Assembly: GCA_045535375.1 (NCBI GenBank)
Contig: JAZSLM010000019.1
Location: 10,871 to 74,870, forward strand
From: Eubacteriales bacterium
Lineage (GTDB): Bacteria; Bacillota; Clostridia; Oscillospirales; CAG-272
Direction: 5' to 3'
DNA length: 64,000 bases
The notes under the pieces are model-generated. The model saw nothing but the letters and a program-made list of their open reading frames with translations. It was not told where the DNA came from and did no database searches. The position numbers and the translations under genes were made by a program. The stretch's first letter is position 1; each line of letters begins with the position of its first letter. Shown piece after piece: positions 3,673-49,876 of this stretch.

Positions 3673-3673
3673 C

Positions 3674-3832
3674 CACTTGTAAAACTGCGTTTTACAAGTG
3701 AAGAGCGCGCGCTTATCGCCGCCGCCAAAATCGAAGATTTTGACGGCTCCCCTCGGCGCGCGAGCTCGCCCTGCTCGCCTGAAAGGTGTTTTTTCGGAGG
3801 CTAAGCCCCCGAAAAAACGGATTTTATTAATT
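3674..3832 (+). repeat. ~157-nt structured intergenic repeat, copy A (copy B at 59299-59455)
   Basis: About 80 percent identical by eye to 59299-59455, in the same orientation. Hairpins CACTTGTAAAAC..GTTTTACAAGTG, GCGCGC..GCCAAAAT..ATTTTGNC..GCGCGC and GTTTTTTCG..CGAAAAAAC. Confidence 0.7.
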
Positions 3833-4981: not shown

Positions 4982-5357
4982 GAGCGGCGGCGTAATTGCC
5001 GTTGAAGCTCTCGCCTACCTCGGCGACGCGGCAATGGAGGTGCTCATCCGTGAACGCCTCGTCCGCTCGGGGCTCTGCTCATCAAAAAGGCTGAACGATG
5101 CTTCTCTCGCATACGTCAAGGCGACGGCACAGAGCGAGGCGCTCGAGAGAATGCTCCCGCATCTGACAGAAGCGGAAGAGGCGACCTACAAGCGCGGAAG
5201 AAATCTCGGCCACGGCAAAAACACGCCGAAAAGCGCATCCGTCAGCGAATACCGCCGCGCAACGGGGCTGGAGACCTTGTTTGGGCAGTTGTATCTTGAT
5301 GGCGACACGCGGAGGATGAACGAGTTACTCGACATTGGGTATCCCGACCTGCGGTAG
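4974..5357 (+). CDS. mrnC: Mini-ribonuclease 3
   Basis: LAYLGDAAMEVLIRERL RNase III-like signature; about 127 aa. TTG start 5 nt after GGAGG, overlapping the upstream stop. Confidence 0.75.
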   Translation: MSESGGVIAVEALAYLGDAAMEVLIRERLVRSGLCSSKRLNDASLAYVKATAQSEALERMLPHLTEAEEATYKRGRNLGHGKNTPKSASVSEYRRATGLETLFGQLYLDGDTRRMNELLDIGYPDLR

Positions 5358-5421
5358 TGAAAAGTGTAAAGTGGAAAGTGTAAAGTTGAGGTGAATTTCC
5401 TCGCTTTGCTCGGAAATTATC
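5357..5421 (+). repeat. Period-7 array (GTGAAAA/GTGTAAA/GTGGAAA) followed by the conserved AGGTGAATTTCC..GGAAATT hairpin module
   Basis: Starts at the mrnC stop. The same composite occurs at 27871-27937. Confidence 0.6.
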
Positions 5422-5437
5422 CTATTAAATAAAAATA

Positions 5438-5548
5438 CTTTTCGCCAAAGGCGAAAAGTTACCTTCATTCTGCGCAGCAGATTATCATTCGGCGCAAGCC
5501 GATTATCATTCCGCCGAAGGCGGATTATCATTCGCGCGAAGCGCGACA
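5438..5548. repeat. Tandem mini-hairpin array with an ATTATCATT linker
   Basis: CTTTTCGCCAAAGGCGAAAAG, then TGCGCAGCA, GGCGCAAGCC, CGCCGAAGGCG and GCGCGAAGCGC, each preceded by (G)ATTATCATT(C). Confidence 0.7.
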
Positions 5549-5576
5549 GAAATTTTACAGAAAAGGAACCAAAATA

Positions 5577-6080
5577 ATGTCCAATCCCATCATTGAAATC
5601 AAAGTAACCAACTTCGGCACCATGAAAGCCGAGCTTTACCCCAAGCTCGCGCCCAAGACTGTTGAAAACTTCTTGAAGCTCATCGAAGAAAAGTTCTTCG
5701 ACGGACTCATCTTCCACCGCGTGATCAAGGGATTCATGATCCAGGGCGGCGGGTACAACGCGCAGTTCGAGCACAAAGAGGCTTCCCCCATTAAGGGTGA
5801 GTTCGCGGCAAACGGCTGGGTTCAGAACGATCTTAAGCACACCGCGGGCGTTCTCTCGATGGCTCGCACGTCCGACCCCGACTCGGCATCCTCGCAGTTC
5901 TTCATCATGCACAAGGATTCCCCCCACCTCGACGCCCAGTACGCGGGTTTTGGAAAGGTCATCGAGGGCATCGAGGTCGTCAACAAGATCGCATCGGTGA
6001 AAACCGGCACTCTCGGCTTCTACATGGCAGACGTCCCCCGCGAGAGCGTTGTTATCGAGAGCATCAGAGTGGTGGAATAA
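5577..6080 (+). CDS. ppiB: Cyclophilin-type peptidyl-prolyl cis-trans isomerase
   Basis: FHRVIKGFMIQGGG and SMARTSDPDSASSQFFI cyclophilin blocks. Confidence 0.85.
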   Translation: MSNPIIEIKVTNFGTMKAELYPKLAPKTVENFLKLIEEKFFDGLIFHRVIKGFMIQGGGYNAQFEHKEASPIKGEFAANGWVQNDLKHTAGVLSMARTSDPDSASSQFFIMHKDSPHLDAQYAGFGKVIEGIEVVNKIASVKTGTLGFYMADVPRESVVIESIRVVE

Positions 6081-6089
6081 AATAAAGGG

Positions 6090-6403
<314 letters not shown>

Positions 6404-6407
<4 letters not shown>

Positions 6408-8458
6408 TTTTCTTCGCTATCTTTCTTCTCCTCAACGCCATCCTTTTTCTCGGAAAAATCCATCTTATCGATGTCCTCTCCGCGGAGGTCGGCTTTGATG
6501 CGTTCGAAGGCTTCACGGTCGCGGCGTTCTTTCTCAAGGCGCTCTTTTTCCTGCTCCTCGCGTCGGCGCGCGTTAGCTTCTTCGCTCTTGCGCTTCTTTT
6601 CAGCCGCGATCTCCTCGAGAGCTTCAACGGTCGGTTCATCCGATTCCATAGCGCACTTGAACTGGTCGCCGTCCATTATCTCGTGTGTAAAGAGGTATTC
6701 GGCAACGAATTCGAGCTTCGATGCGTTTTCGGTGAGAAGTTTCTTTGCAACCTCGTAAGCATCGGTGACGATCTTGTGGATCTCGGCGTCGATCTTAGCT
6801 GCGGTCTGACCCGAGTAATCCTGGCGCGCGGAGAAATCTCTGCCAAGGAAGACATCGCCGCCGCCCTGACCGTAGCGGATGGGTCCGAGCTCATCCGACA
6901 TACCGAGCTGTGTTACCATCTTGCGTGCGATATTGGTTGCGCGCTCGATGTCGTTCGAGGCACCGCCCGAGAAATCGCCGAAGGTCAGCACCTCTGCGGC
7001 ACGGCCTGCAAGAAGAACGCTGATCTCTTCCTTCAGTTCCTCACGGTATTCGCTCTGCTTATCCTCGGTCGGCACGTTGAGGGTGTAGCCGAGGGCGCGG
7101 CCCGCGGGGATGATCGAGATCTGGTGAACGGGGTCGGGCGTGGGGAGGAGGAAGGACACAAGCGCGTGGCCCGCCTCGTGATATGCGGTCTTGCGAAGCT
7201 CCTTGGGGTTGCGCTTCATCGACTTCTTCTGGGGACCTGCGATGACCTTGATGAAGGAATCTTCGATATCCTCCATGCCGATCAGCGACTTGCCGCGGCG
7301 GACCGCAAGCAGAGCAGCCTCGTTGAGGAGGTTCTGAAGGTCAGCACCGGTAAATCCCGCGGTGGTCTGCGCGATCTTTTCGAAATCGACTTCATCCTCG
7401 AATTTCTTGCCGCGCGCGTGAACGTGAAGGATCTCCTCACGTCCCTTGATATCGGGGTAGTTAACGGTGATCTGTCTGTCGAAACGTCCGGGGCGGAGAA
7501 GTGCGGGGTCAAGGATGTCGGGACGGTTGGTTGCCGCCATAACGATGATGCCCTCGTGCGCGCCGAAACCGTCCATTTCAACAAGGAGCTGGTTGAGGGT
7601 CTGCTCTCTCTCGTCGTGACCGCCGCCCAGGCCCGCGCCTCTGTGGCGTCCGACGGCGTCGATCTCGTCGATAAAGACGATCGAAGCGGGAGCCTTGCGC
7701 GCGGTCTCAAAGAGGTCGCGGACACGCGATGCGCCGACACCGACGTACATTTCAACGAAATCGGAACCCGAGATCGAGAAGAAGGGAACGTCAGCCTCGC
7801 CCGCAACAGCCTTCGCGAGCAGGGTCTTACCCGTGCCGGGAGGGCCCATCAGCAGAACGCCGTGGGGTATCTTTGCGCCGAGAGCGGCAAATTTTTCGGG
7901 ATTCTTAAGGAATTCAACGATCTCCTGGAGCTCTTCCTTTTCTTCCTGTGCGCCTGCAACGTCGGAGAAGAGGACTCTTTGCTTCGTGTCTGCGGGAGTT
8001 TTTACTCGCGCCTTTGCAAAGCTTCCGGGCTTGCCGTTCTTGCCGCCGACTTGACCCATCATAAAGATCCAGAGAACGGCGAAGAGAATGAGCATACCCA
8101 CATAGGGGAGGATCGATACCCACCAGGGCCAGACTGTGGCGGGTTCGTATTCATAAGCGGTGATGATTCCCGCGGTGTGCTGTTCGGCAATAAGATCGCC
8201 GAGATCCTCGCGGAAGAAGGAGATGCTTGCAAGACGGTAGGTGACCTTCGAGCCGTCTTTAAGGGTCAGTTGGATGATGCCTTCGTTATCAACGAAGAAT
8301 TCTGTGACCTCTTCTTTTTCAAAATAGGTCTTGATATCGCTGTAATCGGGCGCCTTTTTACCTGTCCCCGAGAAAAGGGAGGAGAGCATAAAGATCAGAA
8401 CAGCGACAACAATGATATAGATCAGTATTGTGCGGAAATTGCCTGAGCGTTTGTTCAT
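6404..8458 (-). CDS. ftsH: ATP-dependent zinc metalloprotease FtsH
   Basis: Walker A GPPGTGKT, an AAA domain, Zn motif HEAGHA, and two N-terminal TM helices. Confidence 0.95.
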
Positions 8459-20486: not shown

Positions 20487-23069
20487 ATGGCAGTCGGCTC
20501 TCAGTATAAAGTGAATCAGTTGGCAAAGGACCTCTCGATCAAGGCAAAGGATCTCACCGATCTTATGGCGGCGCAGGGACTTGACGCCAAAACACAAAAG
20601 GCTCTTGATAACTTCGAGCTTGACGTGATTTGGGAGGCACTCACCAAAGCGCATCAGATCGTTGGTATCGAGGATTATATCGACGGCGTGACAGGCATAC
20701 CCTCTTTGCGGAAAAAAGCCGCAGAGACGAAGCCCGAAGCTAAGGCAAAGGCGGAAAAGCCTGCCGGACAGCCCCAGGCAAAGTCCGAAAAGCCTGCGCC
20801 CAAAGCAGAAGAAAAGAAACCCGAGGCAAAGCCCGAGGTGAAGGCAGAGGGAAAGAAGCCCGAAGCTCCCAAGCAGGAAAAGAAGGCGGAAGAAAAGAAG
20901 CCCGAGCAGAAACCCGAGGAAAAGAAGCCCCAGGAAAAGCAGAACGTCGCGCGCAGTGCGGGCGAGCGTTTTGAGTCGCGCATGAGTGCGGCAAACGAAA
21001 AGTCAAAGCAGGAAAAGACCGAAAAGAAGCAGGAAAGACGCGAGGAAAAGAAATCGGGCAGAACTGCTATCGATATGCGCGCATCGGCACGTCCCGAGGG
21101 CGAGCGCGAGGTCGTAACCGTCAGCCCCAAGGCGGCAACCCGCGTTGTCGACACCAGAGGCAGCGGTGCCGTTGACCTTTCGAAGTATGACGATAACCTT
21201 GACGGCATCGTTCCCGAAAATATCCGCGAAGAGCGCGGCGGAAGCCAGAAGGTAAAGAAGTCCCCCGCTGCACAGAATGCGGAAAAGGATGGCGGAAACA
21301 ACCGTCAGGGACAGAAGAACCAGAATCAGGGCGGCAAAAACGAGGGCCGCAAGGATAACCGTCAGAACGGCAAGAACGACAGAAACAACAACAATAATAA
21401 CAATAAGGGCGGCAAGAACGGCAAGAAGGGCGGATTCGTTCCCACTCCTCCTCCCGCACCCGCAAAGAAGGTTCCCGTAAAGGCAGAGATCCCCGAGGAG
21501 ATCACCGTTGGCGAATTCGCGCAGAGGATCAAGGCTCCCGCAGGCGAAGTCATCAAGAGACTTATGCTCATGGGCATGATGGTGACCCTCAACCAGACCA
21601 TCGACTTCGACACCGCATTCCTCATCGCGGATGAGCTCGGTGCCGAGATCACCAAGGAAGTCGTCGTCAGCATCGAGGACAGACTCTTCGAAGAGGAAGA
21701 GGACAGCCCCGAGAACCTTGTTGAGCGCGCTCCCGTCGTTTGCGTAATGGGTCACGTTGACCACGGTAAGACCTCGCTTCTCGACGCTATCCGTAACACC
21801 CGCGTGACCGCAGGCGAGGCGGGCGGAATTACCCAGCATATCGGCGCATACCGCGTAAAGATCAACGGCAAGGAGATCACCTTCCTTGACACCCCCGGCC
21901 ACGAGGCGTTCACCGCAATGCGTGCCCGCGGCGCGCAGGCTACCGATATCGCGATCCTCGTTGTTGCGGCGGACGACGGTATCATGCCCCAGACAGTCGA
22001 GGCTATCAACCACGCAAAGGCTGCGGGCGTTCAGATCATCGTTGCCATCAACAAGATGGATAAGCTCGGAGCAAACCCCGACAATATCAAGACAGCACTC
22101 ACACAGTACGATCTCGTTCCCGAGGAATGGGGCGGCGACGTAATGTGCATCCCCGTTTCGGCACTCAAGCACGAGGGTATCGACGACCTTCTCGAGGCTA
22201 TCCTTCTCATCGCCGAGATGCAGGAATATAAGGCAAATCCGAACAGACGTGCAAAGGGTATCGTCATCGAGTCGAAGCTCGACCGCGGACGCGGACCCGT
22301 TGCAACCGTCCTCATCCAGAACGGTACTTTGCGCGCAGGAGACATCGTTATCGCGGGCACAGCCGTCGGACGTGTCAGAGCAATGACCGACCACACCGGC
22401 AGGACCGTAAAGGTCGCTCCTCCCTCGATGCCCGTTGAGATCACGGGTCTTGCGGACGTTCCTCAGGCAGGCGACGAGGTCAACGCAGTCGTTGACGAGA
22501 GAATGGCAAGAGAACTCGCCGAGCAGAGACGTGCTCAAGCGAAGGAAGAGGAGTTCAAGGCAAACGCGAGAACCAACCTCAACGACCTCTTCGCGCAGAT
22601 CCAGGAAGGTGTCAAGGAGCTCAACGTCATCGTCAAGGCAGACGTGGGAGGCTCCGCCGAGGCAGTCAAGCAGTCGCTTGAGAAGATCACCAACGAGGAA
22701 GTCAGAGTTCGCGTTATCCACGCGGCAGCGGGAGGTATCACCGAGGGTGACGTTATGTTCGCGGCGGCATCGAACGCCATCATCGTCGGTTTCAACACCC
22801 GTCCCGACCGTACCGCTCTCGATTCCGCAGAGCGCCAGGGCGTTGATATCCGCACCTACCGTATCATCTACGATTGCAACAACGAGATCACAGCCGCTAT
22901 GAAGGGTATGCTTGCTCCCAAATTCCAGGAGAAGCTGCTCGGTCATATCGAGGTCCGTCAGGTCATCCACGTTCCGAACGTCGGCTTCATCGCGGGCTCT
23001 TACGTTCAGGACGGTAAGATCACCCGTAAGGCGCAGATCCGCGTAGTACGCGACGGTATGGTTGTATAG
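20487..23069 (+). CDS. infB: Translation initiation factor IF-2, ended by an in-frame TAG; homology continues to the TAA at 23217-23219
   Basis: GTPase blocks [19 protein letters not shown] and NKMD. The frame after TAG 23067 encodes [25 protein letters not shown]..., the normal IF2 C-terminus. Confidence 0.9.
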
Positions 23070-23259: not shown

Positions 23260-23385
23260 ATGAATGATACTTCGCCCTGCGGGCGAAATGATAATCTGCC
23301 TGCGGCAGAATGATAATCGGCTTGCGCCGAATGATAATTTGCCTTCGGCAAAATGAAGGTGAATTTCCGCAAGCGGAAATTTTCG
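23260..23385. repeat. Tandem mini-hairpin array with an AATGATAAT linker, ending in the AAGGTGAATTTCC..GGAAATTTTCG module
   Basis: CTTCGCCCTGCGGGCGAA, CTGCCTGCGGCAG, CGGCTTGCGCCG and TTGCCTTCGGCAA are separated by ATGATAAT. Confidence 0.7.
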
Positions 23386-24286: not shown

Positions 24287-24323
24287 ATTTCAGTTGTCGA
24301 TATTTTGTCGACAACTGAATTTT
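24287..24323 (+). terminator. Terminator hairpin, sequence-related to the one at 25919-25954
   Basis: ATTCAGTTGTCGA..TCGACAACTGAAT followed by TTT. Confidence 0.55.
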
Positions 24324-24369
24324 AGTTTTGTGACAATAAATATCAATATATAATAACAAAATTATACTT

Positions 24370-24509
24370 GTAGGGGACGGCGCCTCGACGTTACGAGCCC
24401 AATTAAGTTATTGCTGTGTTTTTATTCAAGAAAACATCATTGTAGTTTCTGCATTTAGTCAACGCAATAATATCGTGCTGTCGCGGGACGTCGAGGCGCC
24501 GTCCCCTCC
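24370..24509. repeat. ~140-bp element with ~20-bp terminal inverted repeats, copy A (copy B at 51771-51910)
   Basis: GTAGGGGACGGCGCCTCGACGT ... ACGTCGAGGCGCCGTCCCCT flanking an AT-rich core. Confidence 0.6.
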
Positions 24510-26424: not shown

Positions 26425-26540
26425 GCGCCGTCATGCGCGGCGCGCGATATGCTCGCTTCGCGAGCGCGATATATCGGCTGTGCCGATACGATATACCTTC
26501 GGCACGATATGTTCCGCTGTGCGGAACGTGAAATTTTTTA
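26425..26540 (+). repeat. Mini-hairpin array with a GCGATAT-type linker
   Basis: GCGCCGTCATGCGCGGCGC, GCTCGCTTCGCGAGC, CGGCTGTGCCG and TTCCGCTGTGCGGAA, then CGTGAAATTTTTT. Confidence 0.65.
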
Positions 26541-26570
26541 TAAAAACCGCATTTTTATTCATTTTAGGTA

Positions 26571-26599
26571 TTGACATATTCATTAAAATGTAGTATAAT
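26571..26599 (+). promoter_or_regulatory. Consensus sigma-A promoter for argG
   Basis: TTGACA-17 nt-TATAAT. Confidence 0.55.
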
Positions 26600-26620
26600 A
26601 TGCAAGTATTCAAAAAATCG

Positions 26621-26634
26621 TGCATATTTATGCA
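26621..26634 (+). promoter_or_regulatory. Palindromic ARG-box-like operator candidate
   Basis: TGCATATTTATGCA compared with the ARG-box core TGAAT-WWWW-ATTCA, lying between the -10 and the argG RBS. Confidence 0.3.
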
Positions 26635-26649
26635 AACAAGGAGTTAATT

Positions 26650-27888
26650 ATGAAAGTTCTCGACAAATCCAAGATCAAGAAAGTCGCCCTTGCTTATTCG
26701 GGCGGTCTCGATACATCCATCATCATTCCGTGGCTCAAGGAAAACTACAACAACTGCGAAGTAATCGCGATCTCGGGCAACGTCGGTCAGGCTGACGAGC
26801 TTGAGGGTCTTGAGGAAAAGGCGCTGAAGACCGGCGCGTCCAAGCTCTACGTCCTCGACCTTTGCGACGATTACGTTGACAATTACATCATCCCCACCAT
26901 GAAGGCGGGCGCGATCTATGAGGAATACCTCCTCGGCACCTCGCACGCTCGTCCCTGCATCGCGAAGGCTCTCGTTGAGGTAGCTCTCAAGGAAGGCTGC
27001 GACGCTATCTGCCACGGCTGTACCGGTAAGGGCAACGACCAGGTCCGTTTCGAGCTGACCATCAAGGCGTTCGCTCCCGATATGCCCATCATCGCTCCCT
27101 GGAGAGAGTGGGATATCAAGTCGCGTGAGGAAGAGATCGACTACGCGGAGGCGCACAACGTACCGCTCAAGATCAACCGCGAGACCAACTACTCGAAGGA
27201 TAAGAACCTCTGGCACCTCTCGCACGAGGGTCTTGACCTTGAGGACACCGGCAACGAGCCGCAGTACGAGAAGCCCGGCTTCCTCGAGATGGGCGTTTCT
27301 CCCATTATGGCTCCCGATAAGCCTACCTACATCGAGCTCGATTTCGTACAGGGTGCTCCCGTAGCACTCAACGGCGAAAAGATGAGCGCGAAGGATATCA
27401 TCCTCGCCCTCAATAAGATCGGCGGCGAGAACGGCATCGGTCTGCTTGACATCGTTGAAAACCGTCTTGTTGGTATGAAGTGCCGTGGCGTATACGAAAC
27501 TCCCGGCGGAGCGATCCTCTATAAGGCGCACAGCGTGCTCGAGTCGATCTGCCTTGACAAGTACACACTCCACGAAAAGCAGAAGCTTGCCGTCACATTC
27601 GGTGAGCTCGTATATAACGGCCAGTGGTTCACACCTCTCCGCGAGGCGCTTTCCGCGTTCGTTGACAAGACCCAGGAGACGGTTACCGGTAAGGTAAGAC
27701 TCAAGCTCTACAAGGGCAATATGATCAACGCGGGCGTATGGAGCGACTACTCTCTCTACAGCGAGGAGATCGCAACCTTCGGCGAATCCGACTACGACCA
27801 GTCGCAGGCGGCAGGATTCATCAATCTCTTTGGACTTCCCATTACCGTTAAGGCGATGGTCGATAAAAAAGTGAAGAGTGAAAAGTGA
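26650..27888 (+). CDS. argG: Argininosuccinate synthase
   Basis: [12 protein letters not shown]-binding motif. Start at ATG 26650 with AAGGAG upstream. Confidence 0.95.
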
Positions 27889-28400
27889 AAAGTGAAAAGG
27901 TGAGGTGAATTTCCTCGCTTTGCTCGGAAATTTTCGATTTTAATTAAAACCAAAGACAACAGCAGCGGGAAAGTTTTTGAAGATTCTTAAGTGACTTTTT
28001 TCAAAAAGTCACTTAAGTCGCCCTCCGCAGAGGGCGAAACTTCTCCGCGCTTCGAGCTGACTGCGCCCCGCAGGCAGCTCGGACAGAGTCAATAGCCCCC
28101 TTGCGGGGCTATTGTGCTCTGTCAATCTTTATAAAAATAAAATGAATGAGTCATACCTTCCGCGAGGGAAGGTATGACTCATTCCGAACAGTCGGCGGGG
28201 TGCCGCCTGTTCGAAGCACAAGGTGTTTCGCGCGGCTCTGGCGGTTTTCCGAAGGAAAATGGAGGCGGGAGCCGACAAGACAGAGTCGACTTTTGCCGTA
28301 GGCAAATATGTCTGCGGAGGGCGACTTAAGGCTCTGCCTTAAGAAACCGCAAACTTTTGAAAAAGTTTGATCAAAACTTTCAAGCTTTGAGAGGATTTAA
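27871..28400. repeat. ~530-bp mosaic of repeat modules filling the argG-argH spacer
   Basis: GTGAAAA heptamers, the AGGTGAATTTCC hairpin, CTTAAG palindromes, the GACAGAGTC..GCTCTGTC hairpin, a 105-bp module (28226-28330), and a 34-nt CGCAAACTTTTGAAAAAGTTTGATCAAAACTTTC module. Confidence 0.65.
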
Positions 28401-28402
28401 TT

Positions 28403-29782
28403 ATGGCTAAACTTTGGGAAGGCAGGACGGCGGCACAGACCGATAAGATCGCAGATGATTTCAATTCGTCGATCGCCGTTGACTGCCGTATGTATAAAGA
28501 AGATATCACGGGCAGCATGGCGCACGCCGCTATGCTCGGGGAGCAGGGAATTATCGCGCCCGATGAGGCGGAAGTGCTTATCGACGGTCTTGCGGGCATT
28601 CTGGCAGATCTGAATGAGGGCAAGCTCGAGATCGATCCCACCGCCGAGGATATCCATATGTTCGTCGAAACCGTACTGACGGCGCGCCTCGGCGATGTGG
28701 GCAAAAAACTTCATACCGCGCGCAGCCGTAACGATCAGGTCGCGCTCGATTTCCGTATGTATCTCCGAAATGAAACCGAGGTCGTTGTGGAAAAGATCAA
28801 GGCGATGGCAGCCACTCTTGCAGATAAGGCGGAGGAGTACGCCACCGCGATCATGCCCGGCTACACGCACCTGCAGAGAGCGCAGCCGATCAGCTTCGGT
28901 CATCACCTTTTAGCTTACGCGATGATGCTTCTGCGCGATGCGGAGCGATTCACGGATACACTCAAGCGTATCGATATCTGCCCCATCGGCTCCTGCGCGC
29001 TTGCGGGAACGACTTATGATACCGACAGATATTTCGAGGCGGAAAAGCCCGGGTTCTCGAAGATCGCGCTCAACTCGATCGACGGCGTATCCGACCGCGA
29101 TTTCGCTCTCGAATTCCTTGCGAATTGCTCGATCCTCATGACTCACCTCTCGCGATATGCCGAGGAAGTGATCCTCTGGTCGAGCTGGGAGTTCGGATTC
29201 GTCGAGCTTTCGGATGCCTACACCACCGGCTCGTCGATCATGCCGCAGAAGAAGAATCCCGATATGGCGGAGCTGATCCGCGGCAAGACGGGACGCGTCA
29301 ACGGTGATCTCATCACGCTTTTGACCGTAATGAAGGGTCTGCCGCTGGCGTATAACAAGGATATGCAAGAGGATAAGGAAACCGTATTCGACGCGCTCGA
29401 TACCGTCAAGATCTGCCTCGACGTTGCCATACCGATGACGGCAACCATGACGGCGCGTACCGAGAAGATGCGCAAAGCCGCAGAGGGCGGATTCATCAAC
29501 GCCACTGACCTCGCCGATTACCTCGTCGGCAAGGGAATGCCCTTCCGCGCGGCATATAAGATCTCGGGACAAGTCGTCGCCGAGTGCATCAAGACGGGCA
29601 AAGTGCTTGAAAACCTGCCGATCGAGGTTTATAAGTCCTATTCCGAGATAATCTCCGATGACGTCTACGACGCCGTAAACCTCGATAATTGCCTCTGCCG
29701 CAGAACAAGCGAGGGAGGACCGGCGGCGGAGTCTGTGAAGAAGCAGATTGAGTACGTTAGAAGTCGCGCTTCGCGCAAATGA
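28403..29782 (+). CDS. argH: Argininosuccinate lyase
   Basis: Fumarate-lyase signature GSSIMPQKKNPD. Confidence 0.95.
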   Translation: MAKLWEGRTAAQTDKIADDFNSSIAVDCRMYKEDITGSMAHAAMLGEQGIIAPDEAEVLIDGLAGILADLNEGKLEIDPTAEDIHMFVETVLTARLGDVGKKLHTARSRNDQVALDFRMYLRNETEVVVEKIKAMAATLADKAEEYATAIMPGYTHLQRAQPISFGHHLLAYAMMLLRDAERFTDTLKRIDICPIGSCALAGTTYDTDRYFEAEKPGFSKIALNSIDGVSDRDFALEFLANCSILMTHLSRYAEEVILWSSWEFGFVELSDAYTTGSSIMPQKKNPDMAELIRGKTGRVNGDLITLLTVMKGLPLAYNKDMQEDKETVFDALDTVKICLDVAIPMTATMTARTEKMRKAAEGGFINATDLADYLVGKGMPFRAAYKISGQVVAECIKTGKVLENLPIEVYKSYSEIISDDVYDAVNLDNCLCRRTSEGGPAAESVKKQIEYVRSRASRK

Positions 29783-30360
29783 TAGTCTGCCTTCGGCAGA
29801 ATGAAGGTAAATTTCCGAGCCGGAAGGCTCGGAAATTTTCGATTATAATTGAAACTAAAGACAACAGCAGCGAGAAGTTTTTTGAAGATTCTTAAGAAAC
29901 TTTTTCGAAAAAAAGTTTCTTAAGTCGCCGTCCGCAGACATATTTGCCTACGGCAAAAGTCGACTCTGTCTTGTCGGCTCCCGCCTCCATTTTCCTTCGG
30001 AAAACCTCCAGAGCCGCGCGAAATACCCCTGCGCTTCAAACAGACGACGCCCCGTCGGCTGTTTGGAAGGAGTAAAACCTCCCCTTGGGGAGGTTTTCGC
30101 TCCTTCACCCTGCGTGACCTTCGGTCACGCAATGCCAAATAAAGATTTAACAATAGGCACAGATCCCTCGCCTCGGCAAACCGTGTACCCTCCATGGCCC
30201 TCCCGCAAGCGGCAATGCTGTCAACTTAAGAAAGTTATTAAAAAGCTATGTTCGTACTCGTTTCGAGGGGATTTCCTTAAGTGGACAGCATTGCTGCCAG
30301 CGGGAGGGCTTTGTTTTATTATAAAACCTCTTATTTGGCACTCTGAACATAGAAATTAAC
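29766..30360. repeat. Mosaic repeat region downstream of argH
   Basis: Starts inside the argH 3' end. Contains the direct repeat of 27920-28031 and the inverted 105-bp module (29919-30023). Confidence 0.6.
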
Positions 30361-31325: not shown

Positions 31326-31590
31326 CAAGCGGTCGGCAGGGGCGCCGCCCGCTTGAAGCACACGGGGAATTTCGCCGTCTGCGGACGGCGACTTAAGAAA
31401 CTTTTTTGAAAAAAAGTTTCTTAAGAATTTTCCAAAAACTTTCCGCTGCTGTTGACTTTAATTTAATTGAAAATTTCCGCGTGCGGAAATTTACCTTCAT
31501 TCGGCGCAGCCGACTATCATTCTGCGAAGCAGATTATCATTCTCGCGCAAGCGAGATTATCATTCCGCCGAAGGCGGACAGTACGCATAT
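31326..31590. repeat. Mosaic repeat region including a mini-hairpin array (31471-31582, ATTATCATT linker)
   Basis: Reverse-orientation copies of the CTTAAGAAACTTTT palindrome and CAACAGCAGCGGAAAG modules, then GGCGCAGCC, TGCGAAGCA, CGCGCAAGCG and CGCCGAAGGCG hairpins. Confidence 0.6.
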
Positions 31591-39228: not shown

Positions 39229-40169
39229 AATACGAGTCCTTTCACGGGGTCTGCCCCGATTGCTATATTCATATTCTGGATGGCTGCGCCCGAAGCGCCC
39301 TTGCCGAGGTTGCAGAATAATGCATAAATATTCATTGTGTATTCATTTCCCGAAACGATGATCTGCATCGAATCTCTGCCCGAAAGCGAATTCGAGAAGA
39401 TAAGCCCGTCGGGTGTGCCCTTTTCGCAGAGGGGAGCGACCGAGATGATCTTGCTTGACGCGTAGTGCTCCGAATAGAGCGCGTGCATTTCGGCAACCGA
39501 AAGCTGCTTCTTTGCAAGACGCATCTGCACGGGTACGCAAACGCACATTCCCGAATAGAAATCAGAAACGATCGGGTTGAACGCGGGGGCAAAATCGAGC
39601 GAGCAGACCGACTTGATCTCGGGCAGATGCTTGTGAGAAGCGGTCAGCGCGTAATGACAGGGCGAATCGAATTTCGGGTCGCGTCCGTCAGCCTCATAAT
39701 CGGCGATCATTTTCTTTCCTCCGCCCGAATATCCCGTCAGGCTGTGGATCGCGAAAGGATAGGCGGCGTCAAGGATTCCGCGCGATACGAGGGGGTAGAG
39801 GATCGCGATCGCGCCGCTTGCGTGGCAGCCGGGATTTGCGATGCGTTTCGAGCTTTTTATCTTTTCGGCGTGAGCCGCGGAAAGCTCCGGAAAACCGTAT
39901 GCCCAATCGGGGTTTGTGCGGTGCGCGGTCGAGCAGTCTATGATAACGGTGGAGTCATTTTTGCAAAGAGTCACAGCCTCGCGCGCCGCGTCGTCGGGCA
40001 GGCAGAGGAAGGTGACGTCGGAGGCACAGATCGCCTCTTGTCGCGCGGCGGCGTCCTTGCGTAATTCCTCGGGAAGAGTGATGAGCGAAATATCCTCGCG
40101 CGAGGCAAGCCGCTCATGGATGCGCAGTCCCGTAGTCCCCGCGCTTCCGTCAATGAACACTTTTTTCAT
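39225..40169 (-). CDS. argC: N-acetyl-gamma-glutamyl-phosphate reductase
   Basis: GSAGTTG NAD-binding motif and catalytic ANPGCHASG. Start at ATG 40169; the upstream part of the ORF is promoter DNA. Confidence 0.9.
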
Positions 40170-40218
40170 AAAATTTTTCTCCAAAAAGAAATTCTTTCTC
40201 ATTATAAATATGTTACAT

Positions 40219-40247
40219 ATTATACTACAAAAATCCCGAAAGGTCAA
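40219..40247 (-). promoter_or_regulatory. Promoter candidate for argCJBD
   Basis: Minus strand TTGACC-17 nt-TATAAT. Confidence 0.45.
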
Positions 40248-40256
40248 GGGGTTTGG

Positions 40257-40291
40257 TGAATATTTTTTCGAGAAAAATGAATAAATAATCA
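40257..40291. promoter_or_regulatory. Pair of ARG-box-like sites with centres 21 bp apart
   Basis: TGAATATTTTTTCG and TGAATAAATAATCA, upstream of the -35. Confidence 0.3.
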
Positions 40292-40302
40292 TTTTTATTA
40301 AT

Positions 40303-40604
40303 AAGTGGCTAGTGTCTAGTGACTAGTGGAAGGTAAATTTTCGCGGAGCGAAAATTTCAGATTAATAATTTTATGATGTGCCGACAAAACTTCGAGTAGC
40401 GCAAAGCTAAAGCAAGTAAAAAAGATTCTCGGATATTTCGAAGCAAAATCTTCTCAATATCCGAGATTTTTATTTAGGCATTAAATTATCCAACTAAATA
40501 GAGGATTATCAACACCAAATTAAATTATCATACAAGCTTGATTTTCGAGCAAAGCGAGAAAATCTTCTTTCACTAGCCACTAGTCACTAGCCGCTAGCCA
40601 CTAT
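40303..40604. repeat. ~300-bp element bounded by inverted CTAGTG-type heptamer arrays (sibling of 6090-6407)
   Basis: Left arm GTGGCTAGTGTCTAGTGACTAGTGG plus the AAGGTAAATTTTCG hairpin. Right side is ATTTTCGAGCAAAGCGAGAAAAT plus CACTAGCCACTAGTCACTAGCCGCTAGCCACTA. Confidence 0.65.
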
Positions 40605-43600
40605 TTACTATACTTCTCCATCATCTCTCTCGCTCTCTTGACGAGCTCCTTATATCTCTCGTCATCGCGCGCGGAGTTGAACCATTCCCAGCCTTTTTTG
40701 GCTGTCATGCCATTGTAGTAGCGCTGGGGGCAAGTGGTGTTCAGAAACCAAGCTTCCTCATAGTGCTCGCGGGTGCCGTCGGGGAGCACTAAAGAGCCGT
40801 TATCTCCTTTTTCGATCTTGATTCCGCCGTAAACTTCACTGTCGCCAACATCGAGCAAGGTTCCATCGGGTATCTCAAACCACTTCGGCGCAAGCTCGAA
40901 GGCGCGCTCGAGATATGCGTAAGCCTCGTCCTTGAGCTCCGGCTTCTTGCATCCGAAAGTGGTGCAAGCCGCCATAAAGTGCATTTCGGCGTAAAGACCG
41001 AGCCACGCGGGCGCGATCTCGCCGTTTTCATCGGTGAGCATATTCTCGATCATCTTGATGCGGTATTTTGCCCACGCTCTGCCTCTCGGCGCGTATTTCC
41101 AGGATCTGCTGTTGCGCGTAATGAAGTGCAGCATCAGGTGAAGATTGTTCGCGGCATTGCGCAGGCGCGCTTCGGGGAGTTTACCCTCATCCCAGATGCG
41201 ATCCTCAATGACCTCGCGCTCAACGAATGCATATTCGGTGGTCGGCGCGGGAACGTTGCGGATGCCCGTCATATCCTCAAAAATATTGATTTCGCCGTCC
41301 TCATTGCGGATATAGGTGTATTCCACAGCGCCATAGTATCCGTCGGTGAGGTCGATCGCCTCGTAAAAGCGCACAAGTCCGTCCTCGAAGGGCATATAAC
41401 CCTTGCCGATGCCCTCGTAGGAGGAAAGCTCGTATATTGCCTTTCTTCCGCCGGCATAATCGTTCACGGTGCGGACGATTCCGATGCCCTCGGCGAAGTA
41501 ATATTCCTTGTTGCCGCCGCGATAGGAGTGACCCCTATCCATACCGTCGATCTTGAGCGAGAGCTTGAGGCAGTTTTCAAATGTACCCGCCTTGGTGGTG
41601 ACGCTTCCGCCGTCCTCGACCGACATCGTCGTCTTGATCGGCATACGGTCGTAAAGTGAATATTCGATCACGGGAGACGCGCCAACGACCCAGGTGTCCG
41701 ACCAAAGGCATTTTGTCGCATCCTGAAGAATTCCGTACATGTGGTTGAAAAGCAGGGCATCCTCTGAGGCGACATTTCCGCTTCCGTTCTTCCATTCAAA
41801 GGAGAAGCGACGGTCCTGCGTCAGATGATATTCCCCATTCTTTTCGTGCAGGGCGGATTTCTGGAAGAAATTCCAATGCCCCGTGACCTTGGTGCCGGGG
41901 TTGAACTCGGGATCGGTGTCAAGGATCCTCCTCGCGACCTTCGCGGCAACACGGCTGTGCAGCTTTTCCATCTGCGTGAGCGCAAGCTTTTCGGTAAGCT
42001 CGATCTGGCGGTAAACGTCCTTGATCTTGCAGTTGTCCTTATCGTCATATTCGCAATATTCGTTGCGGACACACTCGATCATCTCAAGCCACGAGGACTC
42101 GTCATAGCCGAAGCGCTCGCTTTCATCGTATGTTGAGATGATCGCGTTTTCGCCGTCAAAGTATCTGACCTCGTAGCTGTCAACCGACCTTAAATATTGG
42201 GAATTTCCGTCGATCGAATATTCCCATCTGTTGCCGACCGCAAGCGGGATCAGTCCTTCGCCGCCCTTTATCTCGTATGAAGTGAGGTAAGCCGTGTCGC
42301 TGATACCGTCGAGTCTGCGCTCGTATTTTACGATACCAACGCCCGCGCGGTACCAGATCTTGTAATAGGAAGTACCGTTCCACCATTTGTATTCTTTAGA
42401 CTCCCAAACGTGGCAGTTTTCAAACACACCCGCGGGAGTTTCGGCGCGTTCGCTGTCGGAAAGATAGGTGAGAGTCGAGCCGTCGGTGGCGGTGTAGCAC
42501 TCACCCACGGGAATATCGAGGAAGAAATAACCGTCGCAGCTGCCCGCGTTTTCGAACAACATCGAGCGCGTGTCGCAGCCCGAATGAAGATAACCTTCCC
42601 CGTAGCCGTCGCGGTTCCAGGATCTCGGCACGCCGTCGATAATTCTTATCTTATCTGCGCCGAAACCGACGGCGTATGAGTTTTTATCTGCCTGTCCGAA
42701 TTTTTCTTCCATTCTTCCAAGCAAGTCAAGCGCGTTTGCGGCGAGCGAATGTACGGTATCGGACGCGGGGACGAGCTTTTGCGCCTTTTCCAGACATTCA
42801 CGGCTTTCCTCATATTTCCTATCCATCATATATCTGTATCCGAGGCGGAATATTTCGTAAGCCGTTGCACCGACAAATCCCGCTTTTTCGAGCGCGGGGA
42901 TCTGCACGTCGCGCATAAATTCGATCCGCTTCTGACCGCTGTATTCTTCGTCCTCGCGGGTGAGGATGAAGCGCATTATTTCGTCATTTTTACCGATCAG
43001 CGCCGCTTCCTTGATGCGGGCGAAGAGTTCCTCGTTCTTTTTGCCGGGGAGCCACCACCAGCCGCGCGCGAGGACGTCGGCGAGGGCGTGGTATTTATCC
43101 TTGCATTCGGGAAGGTTTTCGACCTCGGCGAGGACGCCCTTGTAGACCTCCGCGAAGCCGCTCTTGTCGCTCATGATCTGCCAGAGCTTGAGCTCCTCAA
43201 CCTTCTTCATTACTCTCTCGACGAGAGTATCGTTTGCTTTTTCATTCATTGCACAAAGTTCCTTTCTCAGCCTTTTTCTGCCTTCGTGGAGCTGGGATTT
43301 GACGGTGCCGACCGAAATTTGCATCCTTTCCGCGATTTCGGCGACCGAAAGCTCCTCGAAGTAATGGAGCGTGATCACGCGGCGTACCTTCTCGGGAAGC
43401 GAGAGGACGGTGCGGTGAAGCTCTTCCTTTTCCTCGGAGATCGCGTAAAGAGAGGCGGGGTCCTGCTCGTAGTCGGTGACGTCCGCGTATTTTTCGACGT
43501 CCTCGATGGGTGCAAAGGGACGGTAGCGGCGCACGGTGTTCTTCGCGCTGAACATTGCGATCTTGCACACCCAGGCGAGGAATTTTGAGGGCTCGGAGAG

Positions 43601-46898: not shown

Positions 46899-48878
46899 AT
46901 GAACGAGAAATATTATAATGATATTATAAAAAACAGAGTGCAGAGGTCGATGCGCCGCTCTTTTCCCGATGAGGGATTCACCGAGCGGCACGCATCGCTC
47001 GGAACTTCCGCGGTCGAGCGAATGAGCGAGCGCTTTGAGCTCGCCGCGCGCGCCGAAAAGCCATATATTTTTGAGGGTCAGCAGATCGTTTTCATGCGTA
47101 CCATCGGCGAGCTTCCCGATATTTTTACCAAGGATGAATGGCGCGCGATCAGGGTGGAGCATATCGTCCACGAGATCGGATATCAGTCGAATTACACTCC
47201 CGATTACATTTCCACGATAAAATCGGGACTTCTCGCGCGTCTTGACTCTGCCGACGAGCACCGCGCGCGTGTGATAAAGGCGATCCTTGATCTTTCCGAA
47301 AGATACTGTAAGCACGCCGCACAGATCGGCAGAGATGATGTTGCCGAGGTTTTGTCCCGTGTTCCCGCGCACCCCGCGACAACTCTGCGCGAGGCTTTGC
47401 AGTTCTTCAGAATTTTGCACTATGCGCTCTGGCTCGAGGGCGATTATCACAACACCGTGGGCAGATTCGACCTGCAGTTTGCTCCCTACTACTATGCCGA
47501 CCTCGCGGCGGGCAGACTGACGAAGGAATCCGCGCTCGAACTGATCGAGGATTTCTTCATCTCCTTCAACATCGACAGCGATATGTATAGCGGCATTCAG
47601 CAGGGCGACAACGGTCAGAGCCTTATGCTCGGAGGTCTGACGGCGGAGGGCGAGGATTGCTTCTCGGAATTTTCCGAGCTTTGCCTCATCGCAAGCCGAA
47701 ATCTGCGTGTCATTGACCCGAAGATCAACCTCCGAGTGAATAAAAACACGCCCGAAAGCCTCTATGAACTCGGAACGACGCTGACGGCGGTCGGACTCGG
47801 CTTTCCGCAGTATTCGAACGATGATGTCGTCATCCCGGGGCTCCTGGAGCTCGGATACGACTACTCGGACGCGGTCAATTATTCGGTCGCGGCTTGCTGG
47901 GAGTGCATCATCCCCGGCTGCGCGATGGACGTGGTCAATTACGGTTCGATGAACCTCAGCCTTGCTGTGCGCGAGGCGATCGTGGCGGATCTCGAAAAAT
48001 CGGCGGATTTCGAAAGTCTTATAGGATCGGTGAAGGATAATATAGAAAAACGTTGCTCCGAGATGGTTGAAAACCGCAAAAAGCCGCTCTGGCAGATGCC
48101 CTCGCCCTTCCTTGAAATGCTCTTTTCCGAGATCAAGTACCGCAATTTCGGCTTCCACGGTGCGGGCATCGCATCGGCAGCGGATCAGCTTGCGGCGGTG
48201 AAGAAGTATGTTTTTGATGAAAAGACGGTCACTCCCGCGCGCCTCATCAAGGCGATCGAGAGCGATTTCGAGAACGACCCCGAGCTTTTGCACCTACTTC
48301 GCTACGAGGCGCCAAAGATGGGTAACGATGAAGACGAAGCCGACGGTATGGCTTGTAAAGTCCTTGAATTTTATGCCGATGCGCTTCGCGACAAGCGCAA
48401 CATCTTCGGCGGACGCTTCCGCGCGGGCACGGGCACGGCGCTGATGTATATCAACAACGCGCGCGAAACTCCCGCAACCGCAGACGGCCGCCGCGACGGC
48501 GAATCTTTTGGCGCAAACTACGCGCCAAACCTCTTTTCGCGCATTTCGGGACCCGTTTCGCTTGTGAGATCCTTCTCCAAGCCCGATCTTGCCAAAACGA
48601 TCAACGGCGGACCCTTCACTGTCGAGTTTTCGGCGGATATGTTCAAAAATGACGAGGCAAAGTCGAAAACGGCGAAGCTCGTCAAGTACTTCATCGACCG
48701 CGGCGGCCATCAGATACAGCTCAACGCCGTCAGTCTTGAGGATATGCTTGACGCGCAGGAAAATCCCGAGGCGCATCGCTCGCTCATCGTCCGCGTGTGG
48801 GGCTGGTCGGGCTACTTCGTTGAGCTTGACAAGTGCTATCAGGATCACGTCATCGCCCGCAGAAGGTACACGGTATGA
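46899..48878 (+). CDS. Glycyl radical enzyme (PFL-like), unusually short at about 659 aa
   Basis: C-terminal glycyl-radical motif IVRVWGWSGYF, Cys-loop AACWECIIPG, and LREALQFFRILHYALWLEG block. Start at ATG 46899, downstream of its own promoter. Confidence 0.85.
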   Translation: MNEKYYNDIIKNRVQRSMRRSFPDEGFTERHASLGTSAVERMSERFELAARAEKPYIFEGQQIVFMRTIGELPDIFTKDEWRAIRVEHIVHEIGYQSNYTPDYISTIKSGLLARLDSADEHRARVIKAILDLSERYCKHAAQIGRDDVAEVLSRVPAHPATTLREALQFFRILHYALWLEGDYHNTVGRFDLQFAPYYYADLAAGRLTKESALELIEDFFISFNIDSDMYSGIQQGDNGQSLMLGGLTAEGEDCFSEFSELCLIASRNLRVIDPKINLRVNKNTPESLYELGTTLTAVGLGFPQYSNDDVVIPGLLELGYDYSDAVNYSVAACWECIIPGCAMDVVNYGSMNLSLAVREAIVADLEKSADFESLIGSVKDNIEKRCSEMVENRKKPLWQMPSPFLEMLFSEIKYRNFGFHGAGIASAADQLAAVKKYVFDEKTVTPARLIKAIESDFENDPELLHLLRYEAPKMGNDEDEADGMACKVLEFYADALRDKRNIFGGRFRAGTGTALMYINNARETPATADGRRDGESFGANYAPNLFSRISGPVSLVRSFSKPDLAKTINGGPFTVEFSADMFKNDEAKSKTAKLVKYFIDRGGHQIQLNAVSLEDMLDAQENPEAHRSLIVRVWGWSGYFVELDKCYQDHVIARRRYTV

Positions 48879-49690
48879 GAGGAGTCATTTTTGACATAAA
48901 GGAATTTGCTCAGCACGACGGTGACGGAGTACGGACGACGGTATTTTTCAAGGGCTGTCCGCTGCGTTGCATCTGGTGCCACAACCCCGAGGGGCTGTCG
49001 CCGAAGCCTGAATTATACGTCGGCACGAACGGGTGCACGGGTTGCGGTCTTTGCCGAAAGCCGTGCAATCATCCCGATTGCGTTTACGGACGTTGCCTGC
49101 ATATCTGCCCCCGGGGGCTTTTGCGCGTCAGCGGCAAGGAATATGAAGCCAAAGAGCTTGCCGAAAAGGTCAAAAAAGGCGCCGATTTCCTGTCGGAAAA
49201 CGGCGGAGTGACTATTTCGGGCGGCGAGCCCCTGATGCAATGGGAGTTCGCGCTTGAGCTGATACGGGAGCTCAAACCGCTCCATATCGCAATCGAAACG
49301 AGCGGATATGCCGACGCGGACGTTTTCCGCAGAGTAATTTCCGAGTGCGACCTCGTGATGATGGATCTGAAGCTCGCCGACAGAGAAGAGCATAAGAGAT
49401 ATACGGGTGTTTATAACGACAAAATACTTGAGAATCTTGAAATTCTCAAGGCGAGCGGGAAGAAATTCCTCCTTCGCACGCCGCTGATCCCGGGTATTAC
49501 AGATACCGATGAAAATTTCACGGGAATCGCGAAAATTGCCGACGGCGCACCCGTCGAGCTTCTGCCGTATAATAACCTCGCTCCCGCGAAATATCGCGCC
49601 GTCGGACGCGAGTTTACCGATTTGATTACCGGAAGCGAGAGCAGGATCAAAAGCGTTGAAGGTTTGCCGGGGAATTTTCGGATCAAATAG
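48875..49690 (+). CDS. Glycyl-radical enzyme activating enzyme (radical SAM)
   Basis: CPLRCIWCHNPE (CX3CX2C) motif plus a ferredoxin-like Cys-rich insert, CTGCGLCRKPC..CLHICP. The ATG overlaps the GRE stop (ATGA). Confidence 0.85.
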   Translation: MRGVIFDIKEFAQHDGDGVRTTVFFKGCPLRCIWCHNPEGLSPKPELYVGTNGCTGCGLCRKPCNHPDCVYGRCLHICPRGLLRVSGKEYEAKELAEKVKKGADFLSENGGVTISGGEPLMQWEFALELIRELKPLHIAIETSGYADADVFRRVISECDLVMMDLKLADREEHKRYTGVYNDKILENLEILKASGKKFLLRTPLIPGITDTDENFTGIAKIADGAPVELLPYNNLAPAKYRAVGREFTDLITGSESRIKSVEGLPGNFRIK

Positions 49691-49744
49691 TTGTTAGTCG
49701 AAGGTGAATTTTCGCAAGCGAAAATTTTCATTTAATAAATAAAA

Positions 49745-49826
49745 ACAAGTGCGAACAAAGCTTTCTTGGTGTCCCCTCCGCAGAGGGTGATGAGGGGGCA
49801 CCAAGAAAGCTTTGTTCGCACTTGTT
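49745..49826. repeat. Long (~30-bp stem) hairpin between convergent genes
   Basis: ACAAGTGCGAACAAAGCTTTCTTGGTG ... CACCAAGAAAGCTTTGTTCGCACTTGT. Shares TGCGAACA with the MITE termini. Confidence 0.6.
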
Positions 49827-49843: not shown

Positions 49844-49876
49844 CTGACCACTGATCACTAATCACTGACCGCTAAT
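49844..49876. repeat. Period-7 array CTGACCA CTGATCA CTAATCA CTGACCG CTAAT
   Basis: Overlaps the serpin stop codon and its last three codons. Confidence 0.55.

Follow-up and report, generated by a model that had tools for sequence, protein, structure and literature searches.

What becomes of a gene whose 3' end meets a repeat? The 64-kb stretch of DNA analysed here (the window) belongs to an uncultured Clostridia lineage, has a GC content of ~53% and carries an arginine-biosynthesis cluster. Six of its genes, identified with Pfam as argG, argH, ftsH, a sigma-70/TPR/DUF3108 fusion, a serpin and a HAD hydrolase, were proposed in a preliminary description to run into repeat modules that provide the stop codon and the last residues of the open reading frame (ORF). 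All six quoted junctions are found in the sequence. The same junction occurs at no fewer than four further genes, which Pfam identifies as a mini-RNase III (mrnC, 4974-5357), a cyclophilin (5577-6080), a radical-SAM activase (48833-49690) and a GDPD protein (55510-56268). We attribute these junctions, with a probability of roughly 65%, to a family of modular intergenic cassettes that is specific to the lineage, non-coding and similar to miniature inverted-repeat transposable elements (MITEs) and bacterial interspersed mosaic elements (BIMEs); the junctions would be the outer edges of these cassettes, whose fast-changing arrays overwrite gene tails.

We compared the window with 175 related loci from other genomes, numbered with the prefix L. 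The nearest public relative is a metagenome-assembled genome (MAG) from goat colon (L001), with 98% identity in ArgG and 91% at the DNA level. L165 and L168 are loci of one MAG, GCA_052830265.1, and L161 and L162 are the closest FtsH relatives without an array (95%). A metagenome scan with FtsH returned only distant relatives (at most 67%), unusable for junctions, which were compared through protein searches and contig look-ups; a look-up for an exact record of the window's cyclophilin returned none. Arrays were called with Tandem Repeats Finder and RNA families with Rfam.

Repeat junctions and cassette anatomy

The last codons of argG (26620-27888), GTG AAG AGT GAA AAG TGA, lie inside a period-7 array (27867-27899). 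The argH gene ends with AGT CGC GCT TCG CGC AAA TGA, a mini-hairpin, CGCGCTTCGCGC, followed by the linker AAATGATAG; the sequence is as first described, and the range is 29762-29782, its start having been given as 29763. The ftsH TGA (6404-6406, minus strand) falls in the first unit of AAAGTGA (CTAGTGG)x4 CTAGTGA, and the TAG of the sigma fusion (40601-40603) in ATAGTAA ATAGTGG CTAGCGG... The serpin end, AGC GGT CAG TGA, is read from TTAGCGG TCAGTGA TTAGTGA TCAGTGG. The HAD gene fits the description in part: the 13-mer ATGTTCGCACAAA is exact at 1695 and 25981, but the stop lies outside any array and a hairpin-array element begins 9 nt later. The features concerned are as follows.

1695-1715, plus strand: HAD tail ATGTTCGCACAAATTAAATAG; its first 13 nt are identical to those with which a repeat family begins (copies at 25981 and 17124; D17).
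1725-1907, unstranded: palindromic hairpin-linker (ATATCGTGT) element after the HAD gene, ~190 bp, absent in L165.
5354-5576, unstranded: mini-RNase III/cyclophilin spacer cassette; TAG 5355-5357 lies in the first heptamer unit, and the cassette ends at ATG 5577.
6084-6410, unstranded: cyclophilin/ftsH convergent-spacer cassette, a 327-bp inverted repeat; left array 6084-6111, right array 6369-6410 (minus).
27868-27902, plus strand: argG heptamer array AAAGTGA AGAGTGA AAAGTGA AAAGTGA AAAGGTGA, with the VKSEK codons and TGA 27886-27888.
27903-27950, plus strand: argG-side anchor hairpin GGTGAATTTCCTCGCTTTGCTCGGAAATTTTC with an AT-rich tail, the inner part of the cassette end.
29762-29803, plus strand: two argH hairpin-linker units (GTCGCGCTTCGCGC-AAATGATA and GTCTGCCTTCGGCAG-AAT), with the SRASRK codons and TGA 29780-29782.
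29803-29912, plus strand: argH anchor hairpin GAAGGTAAATTTCCGAGCCGGAAGGCTCGGAAATTTTC and downstream module, 88% over 86 nt to the argG spacer at 27922-28007 (D9).
40296-40610, unstranded: sigma fusion/argC cassette, a 315-bp inverted repeat; arms 40296-40342 and 40570-40610 (minus), central terminator-like hairpin 40417-40476.
49687-49735, plus strand: short radical-SAM array ATAGTTG TTAGTCG, whose first unit contains TAG 49688-49690, and anchor hairpin GAAGGTGAATTTTCGCAAGCGAAAATTTTC.
49848-49875, minus strand: serpin heptamer array TTAGCGG TCAGTGA TTAGTGA TCAGTGG, then type-2 anchor TCAGAAAGATGCGAC; SGQ codons and TGA 49862-49864.
52017-52101, minus strand: hairpin-linker (GTGATAT) array, scored as the RNA family Gut-1 with 53.2 bits against a threshold of 50.
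56266-56516, unstranded: GDPD/DJ-1 (PfpI) spacer cassette of the type found at 5354-5576, from TGA 56266-56268 to ATG 56517 (D4, D14).

Two kinds of array build these features. Nine have a period of 7 (at 5356, 6089, 6370, 27867, 40304, 40571, 49844, 55394 and 55465) and follow the consensus YYAGTKR, as in CTAGTGG, TCAGTGA or AAAGTGA. Several others repeat a unit of 20-22 nt, in which a similar linker (AATGATAAT, AGTGATAT or ATATCGTGT) is joined to a hairpin of 13-15 nt; the argH unit family (D4) recurs at 23282, 23325 and 56327. Heptamer and hairpin arrays have in common an anchor, the GAAGGT(A/G)AATTT(T/C)C-hairpin (GAAGGTAAATTTTC-hairpin), and a second anchor type, AGAAAGATGCG, comes after NCAGTGR units. 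Across 18 copies, the outer anchor stem keeps its pairing, with compensatory changes in 3 of 7 pairs; the inner stem varies in sequence and length and is self-complementary in every copy. We rejected the anchor as an intrinsic terminator: its stem is mostly A/T with GC in the top 3 bp, and a free U-tract is absent. It is rather the central CTCGGATATT..AATATCCGAG hairpins that look like terminators. Integron attC sites were ruled out on context alone (housekeeping genes, no integrase in the window), and the resemblance of AG/GTAAAT to a group II intron or splice site is due to chance.

Inverted array ends bound the two cassettes of 315-327 bp at 40296-40610 and 6084-6410, each with a terminator-like hairpin in its middle. 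The arms match at 85% in the first (40296-40329 and 40577-40610, 34 nt) and at 89% in the second (6084-6111 and 6383-6410). The right arm at 40296-40610 carries the codons TAT AGT AAA of the sigma fusion and its TAG; the left arm is non-coding and stops 12 nt short of an ARG-box-like site. At 6084-6410, the left array, of CTAGTGG type, begins 3 nt past the cyclophilin TAA, and the right one includes the ftsH TGA. The layout is found again in the convergent ftsH/cyclophilin spacer of L163 and in the serpin/radical-SAM spacer of L169.

A further cassette type, of ~220-250 bp, lies between two unrelated gene pairs (5354-5579 and 56266-56519). The mrnC-cyclophilin and GDPD-DJ-1 spacers are homologous from the upstream stop through the downstream ATG, including a Shine-Dalgarno segment (AGAAAAGGAACC..ATG). 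In the former, a heptamer array is followed by an anchor hairpin, an AT-rich core, an inverted anchor, an inverted Gut-1-like hairpin array (5457-5542) and the Shine-Dalgarno segment; since both cassettes include the latter, the repeats may furnish 5' leaders as well. The modules are thus not restricted to 3' ends: their opposite ends adjoin a promoter or a start codon.

Copies are dispersed over the window in module families D4, D6, D7 and D9-D14. The ends of ftsH and of the sigma fusion match at 84% over 91 nt (D7), and the argG end matches the non-coding module after mrnC at 86% over 80 nt (D10). Terminal inverted repeats, dispersed copies and presence or absence at orthologous sites are all MITE-type traits; extragenic imperfect palindromes in mosaics after gene 3' ends, likewise seen here, are a trait of repetitive extragenic palindromes (REPs) and BIMEs.

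Stop codons, protein tails and their turnover

Stop usage differs between genes that end in repeats and those that do not. Outside repeat units, the 34-35 confidently called genes use TAA 24 times, TGA 10 times and TAG 0-1 times; inside them, the 7-8 genes use no TAA, 4 TGA and 3-4 TAG (Fisher p = 0.0004 to 0.001; the ranges depend on whether the HAD gene is counted as repeat-overlapped). All or nearly all TAG stops of the window therefore lie within repeat units. The window and the related loci contain 27 strict heptamer arrays; for 22 of these, an ORF with a minimum length of 90 codons terminates within the array or no more than 24 nt upstream, and one of the 22 is a shadow ORF only. The overlaps of stops and repeats exceed chance.

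Heptamer arrays also close reading frames. All frames stop within 7 codons in 7 of the 8 window arrays tested; in the remaining one, at mrnC, the two other frames run for 9 and 12 codons. As three frames are shut within ~7 codons, encroachment of an array on a gene costs few residues. The changed tails lie past the Pfam domain ends, at residue 409 of 422 in ArgG and 595 of 601 in the serpin.

The preliminary description had asked for an alignment with orthologues from relatives lacking the repeats, and such orthologues end differently from the window's proteins. The tails of ArgG, ArgH, the serpin and the sigma fusion are lineage-specific; in FtsH, the residues stay the same and only TAA becomes TGA. 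Tails are written below up to the stop codon, with a dot where the divergent part begins.

ArgG gives the broadest comparison: 78 of 80 relatives end in ..VD[A/G/K]KN[N/K/A]K, most with TAA, and the window in VDKK·VKSEK. In L001 the end is VDKK·NAKC, coded by an AATGCAA array whose position and unit count match those of the window's. ArgH ends in YVR·SRASRK in the window and in FVR·EATK in L001, with 4-8 varied residues in other relatives.

FtsH ends in ..DDEEK (gaa gaa aag taa) in L161 and L162 and in ..SEEK in the window, with tga followed by CTAGTGG: here the stop alone is altered. Sister genomes have repeat-encoded FtsH tails, ..K·SDQ in L163 and L164 and ..K·ND in L165. The sigma fusion ends in MEKY with TAA in L172 and L173, in MEKY·SK in the window and in MEKY·GD in L171. 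The window's TAT AGT AAA TAG lies within the inverted cassette arm described above, whose mirror is the non-coding arm beside the argC promoter. Most of 120 serpin homologues end in NI[K/G/N], compared with NI·SGQ in the window, NI·SD in L168 and NI·SGQK in L169, each of the three with an array of its own.

The HAD tail reads NDLSTMFAQIK in the window, WAVDKQ in L163 and RALCAELDK in L165. As the latter two are alike (xA[VL]..DK), the window's tail is the derived one; the comparison stands on two orthologues, as contig P0010 lacks synteny to the HAD gene. The 13-mer ATGTTCGCACAAA is present exactly twice, at 1695 and 25981, and its repeat family has a further copy at 17124. This 13-nt match, the sole link, suggests that NDLSTMFAQIK may stem from the ATGTTCGCAC.. 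end of the repeat. Behind the gene, the ~190-bp element is lineage-specific: in L165, the leader of the next gene follows the HAD stop at a distance of 15 nt. Cyclophilin ends in ..RVVE in the window and L165 and in ..LI·SEQ in L163, mini-RNase III in PDLR (window), PELGR (L163) and PDLG·EVRGNSEE (L165). C-termini are thus rewritten as the preliminary description had it; insertion of the modules at gene 3' ends, the other half of that proposal, is one candidate route among several, and the modules are not specific to 3' ends.

Cassettes and their units are present, absent or replaced at orthologous sites. The 3' end of ftsH carries CTAGTGG units in the window, TCAGTGG in L163, ACAGTGG in L164, TTAGTTG in L165 and no array in L161 and L162; behind the sigma fusion, L172 has a cassette of another kind. 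The arrays are lineage-specific: the 64-kb window contains five, compared with four in the argG-centred loci of 80 other species, which add up to 639 kb. In the MAG of L165 and L168, TTAGTTG units occur at ftsH, cyclophilin and the serpin, where the window has CTAGTGG or TCAGTGA, so that, judged from the sequences, the unit looks as if it had changed in concert across dispersed loci of one genome. Unit type goes together with anchor type, and a unit variant is common to loci of one genome. Together with the fast turnover, this suggests that cassette ends spread or are homogenised within genomes, with local slippage in addition.

Two relatives show a further kind of change. In L004 (~5220-5260, argG) and L164 (~4630-4660, ftsH), an inverted copy of the gene's final 8-18 nt follows directly on the stop; the resulting hairpin takes in the stop codon, and a heptamer array lies beyond. 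From these inverted gene-end copies and from arms that reach the last codons, we infer that palindrome-correcting template switching may contribute.

Origin of the cassettes

The account that we propose is as follows. A cassette end consists of an array of 7-nt units, or of a Gut-1-like hairpin-linker array, followed by the conserved anchor, and paired inverted ends usually enclose an AT-rich core with a terminator-like hairpin. Because such a cassette fills the whole downstream spacer, the array edge lies at the ORF end or a few codons inside it. Arrays turn over fast, with units altered, copies gained or lost and whole cassette types swapped between species, and each change would shift the boundary of array and ORF by a few nucleotides. 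As every frame of a heptamer array holds TAG or TGA, the first stop that the repeat offers in frame would close the ORF, after ~7 codons at most. The repeat thereby encodes the stop codon together with the final 0-6 residues, which lie outside folded domains and are probably near-neutral. Arrival and spread of the cassettes could have involved transposition, ectopic recombination or gene conversion, slippage and template switching.

Several points weigh against this account. By eye, no convincing target-site duplication is seen at the boundaries of 40296-40610 or 6084-6410, where array ends are degenerate and termini inexact, and no transposase occurs among the Pfam-scanned ORFs of the window; mobility is therefore deduced from distribution only. 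Classical transposition explains the data no better than do recombination that replaces cassettes, slippage of arrays or palindrome-correcting template switching. In convergent spacers the cassettes touch both ORF ends, which is beyond a single insertion, so that secondary processes are needed: array growth, spacer deletion or spacer replacement. The ACAGTGG and AATGCAA units of relatives contain no stop, hence frame closure is not universal. Since the native FtsH end AAAAGTAA is already unit-like, some overlaps may partly be due to chance or microhomology. Finally, an RNA-level function could hold the modules beside stop codons.

This last point can be extended into an alternative, to which we give a minor but real share of the probability: the modules would be functional RNA elements of the 3' untranslated region (UTR), with Gut-1-type RNA and with heptamers as periodic protein-binding sites, selected next to stops and altering tails as a by-product. 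They would plausibly adjust how translation terminates, how ribosomes are rescued or how fast mRNA decays, as REPs of E. coli do within 15 nt of a stop; REPs so placed stall ribosomes according to Liang et al. 2015, in the passage of PMC12306157 that cites it. This idea is compatible with cassettes. Beside the array at 52017-52101, which exceeds the Rfam threshold for Gut-1, three more reach 35-47 bits: 31489-31565 (minus, 47), 5457-5533 (minus, 37) and 23262-23342 (plus, 35). The hairpins stay paired through compensatory changes and many have UUCG-type loops, and all arrays abutting a stop are in the sense orientation of their gene. AAAGTGA arrays with other flanks also occur in Logan contigs from metatranscriptomes, a weak indication as the libraries are mixed, the word share is ~0.2 and transcript ends cannot be mapped. 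The symmetry of the cassettes speaks against a 3'-UTR role, however: the second array faces the opposite way, onto a promoter or start codon, where it cannot serve the 3' UTR of the flanking gene. Moreover, close relatives have no array (ftsH in L161 and L162) or unrelated units, and no gene-specific requirement is therefore visible.

The direction could also be reversed, each gene seeding its repeat through slippage or inverted duplication of its own end. Some gene ends do look like seeds: the native FtsH end of L161, GAA AAG TAA, resembles the first unit AAAGTGA, and the array-free L028 ends with AAT GCA AAA TAA, resembling the AATGCAA unit of L001. The inverted duplicates in L004 and L164 belong here too, and so does the fact that unit and anchor vary together, the unit in its 5' part and the anchor at its edge (L165, AGTTGTT..AGTTGAAGG; window, AGTGGCT..AGTGAAGG). 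We nonetheless consider such an origin in place improbable. The unit families are few, have their own anchor type each and recur after unrelated genes and across genomes: AATGCAA after argG (L001) and the sigma fusion (L172), AAAGTGA after argG and mrnC, CTAGTGG after ftsH, the cyclophilin gene and the sigma fusion. Array-free relatives have tails unlike the array-encoded ones, and the coding-side arm of the 40296-40610 cassette has a non-coding mirror arm.

On a more speculative note, and as a long shot, heptamer arrays might be tags specific to each genome, produced or kept uniform at gene ends by an active process and recognised by a trans-acting factor that evolves along with them; the cassettes would then amount to a kind of mobile 'intergenic punctuation'. 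The factor could be an RNA-binding protein recognising a periodic NAG-N4 pattern, of the HutP or TRAP kind, or a recombinase acting on array and anchor. If true, this would explain why the loci of a genome share a unit variant, such as TTAGTTG in one MAG and CTAGTGG in the window, which differs between sisters, and why stop-to-start cassettes with stop, terminator and Shine-Dalgarno segment are common to unrelated gene pairs.

Coincidence, with repeats merely abundant in short spacers and with ancestral stops and tails, is hardly credible: FtsH and cyclophilin residues do equal those of array-free or differently arrayed relatives, and we estimate that a 13-mer match such as that of the HAD gene is not very improbable for many tails against 128 kb, but the sharp contrast in stop codons, the 22 of 27 arrays at ORF ends and the divergence of orthologue tails exactly at the first repeat nucleotide have already largely refuted it.

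If the junctions are cassette edges, non-coding elements keep rewriting the ends and stops of essential housekeeping proteins, among them ArgG, ArgH, FtsH and cyclophilin, in widespread uncultured Clostridia of the ruminant gut. C-terminal differences and TAG stops in such MAGs would then be repeat-derived and not signs of functional divergence. Starts and stops beside cassettes call for care in annotation, too: for argC (minus strand, 40169-40300), simple ORF calling overshoots to an ATG at 40292, while the real start, MKKVFIDGSAGTTG.. at ~40171, is preceded by a TTGACC/TATAAT promoter and the ARG-box-like ATGATTATTTATTCAT.

Other palindromes occur in the same spacers and elsewhere in the window. 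Between the array and anchor ends of the radical-SAM/serpin spacer lies an 83-bp palindromic element (49744-49826) with arms 97% complementary and ends CAAGTGCGAACA..TGTTCGCACTTG; its terminal motif TGTTCGCAC matches the core of the HAD-tail 13-mer. A near-perfect palindrome of ~140 bp (GTAGGGACCGACGTCCTCGGCG ... CGCCGAGGACGTCGGTCCCTAC) at 51770-51911, with a similar GC-rich arm near 24300-24400, is probably a further MITE-like element, and the mir-2513 matches on both of its strands are artefacts of this long palindrome. A non-coding module of ~160 nt (hairpin TTGTAAAACTGCGTTTTACAA..) occurs twice, after hyp214 (3666-3829) and after yceG (59291-59453). The argG leader (26540-26640) contains palindromic TGCATATTTATGCA and ATTCATTAAAATG, 3' of a TTGACA/TATAAT promoter, which by sequence resemble ArgR operator boxes. 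In infB (20487 to ~23238, plus strand), an in-frame TAG at 23067-23069 breaks the IF-2 frame 56 codons before TAA, at what we take, from E. coli IF-2, to be a conserved Tyr position; possible causes are an error in sequencing or assembly, strain variation and read-through. Two GxDLY/GDSL lipase genes are paralogues (2472-2709 and 4423-4660, 72% over 238 nt).

Comparison with known systems

The closest counterpart of the heptamer arrays is the TAACTGA repeat of Beggiatoaceae, Cyanobacteria and Bacteroidetes. In forward orientation, its repeats stop every frame and extend over the stop codons of 13 genes upstream (MacGregor 2015, PMC4679880), so the core phenomenon was already known. TAACTGA and the cyanobacterial STRR repeats share with our arrays the tandem 7-nt units in 2-6 or more copies, the intergenic position, the many sets per genome and the stops in three frames that limit overlap with ORF ends to few codons; the reverse complement TCAGTTA even matches our YYAGTKR consensus. 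Unlike in TAACTGA and STRR1-3, the units here are CTAGTGG, TCAGTGA, AAAGTGA, TTAGTTG, ACAGTGG and AATGCAA, with several variants per genome, and the host phylum is that of uncultured gut Clostridia. The Beggiatoa repeats lie mostly just upstream of start codons, whereas ours are downstream of stops, and a further difference is that a conserved anchor hairpin adjoins our arrays and forms with them the inverted ends of larger cassettes; hairpin-bearing units also exist here. Heptamer repeats of this kind are thereby extended to Bacillota.

Gut-1 (RF01706) was previously known only from human-gut metagenomes; it was listed as a probable free-standing non-coding RNA, unconnected with mRNAs, and rated as very likely RNA (Weinberg et al. 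2010, PMC2864571). It has three short hairpins with GUGAAAU-type linkers, the linker that also builds the argG array without hairpins (AGTGAAA). For the junction arrays of argH and GDPD, Gut-1 has no match at E ≤ 0.05, and all six reported junction arrays are below the Rfam threshold; in 12 related loci, Rfam finds no Gut-1 match at the gathering threshold. In contrast to a free-standing RNA, the arrays here lie between the stop or terminator of a gene and an anchor hairpin, inside spacer cassettes. They are an interchangeable module with a variable number of hairpins and the linkers AATGATAAT, AGTGATAT and ATATCGTGT, continuous with hairpin-less heptamer arrays and abutting ORFs. The orphan motif thus gains a genomic context, as a module of MITE/BIME-like cassettes, in which its function becomes testable.

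With the REPs and BIMEs of enterobacteria and pseudomonads, the cassettes share small extragenic palindromes and other motifs arranged in mosaics just past gene 3' ends. Many REPs are placed within 1-20 nt of a stop, where translation can be affected, again as Liang et al. 2015 is cited in that passage of PMC12306157. The differences are the linkers (AATGATAAT, AGTGATAT, ATATCGTGT) without a GTAG-type head, the heptamer arrays, which set our elements apart from BIMEs, and the last residues of proteins, which our modules encode and extragenic REPs do not.

Multicopy inverted-repeat elements that are present or absent at orthologous sites and supply coding sequence or stops to their neighbours are also reminiscent of Correia/NEMIS elements. 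The latter, in Neisseria, and RPE in Rickettsia are MITEs: short, non-coding, multicopy inverted repeats, polymorphic in presence at orthologous sites and able to give their neighbours coding sequence or stops. Our cassettes resemble both in these respects. Their termini, however, are tandem arrays of variable length instead of fixed terminal inverted repeats, they fill spacers from the stop to the promoter or start, and target-site duplication is not found. What is new compared with all these systems is the phylum, the coexistence of several unit variants and the species-by-species rewriting of tails in housekeeping proteins, together with the continuity of heptamer arrays, Gut-1-like hairpin arrays and anchor hairpins, which jointly form the inverted ends of spacer-filling cassettes.

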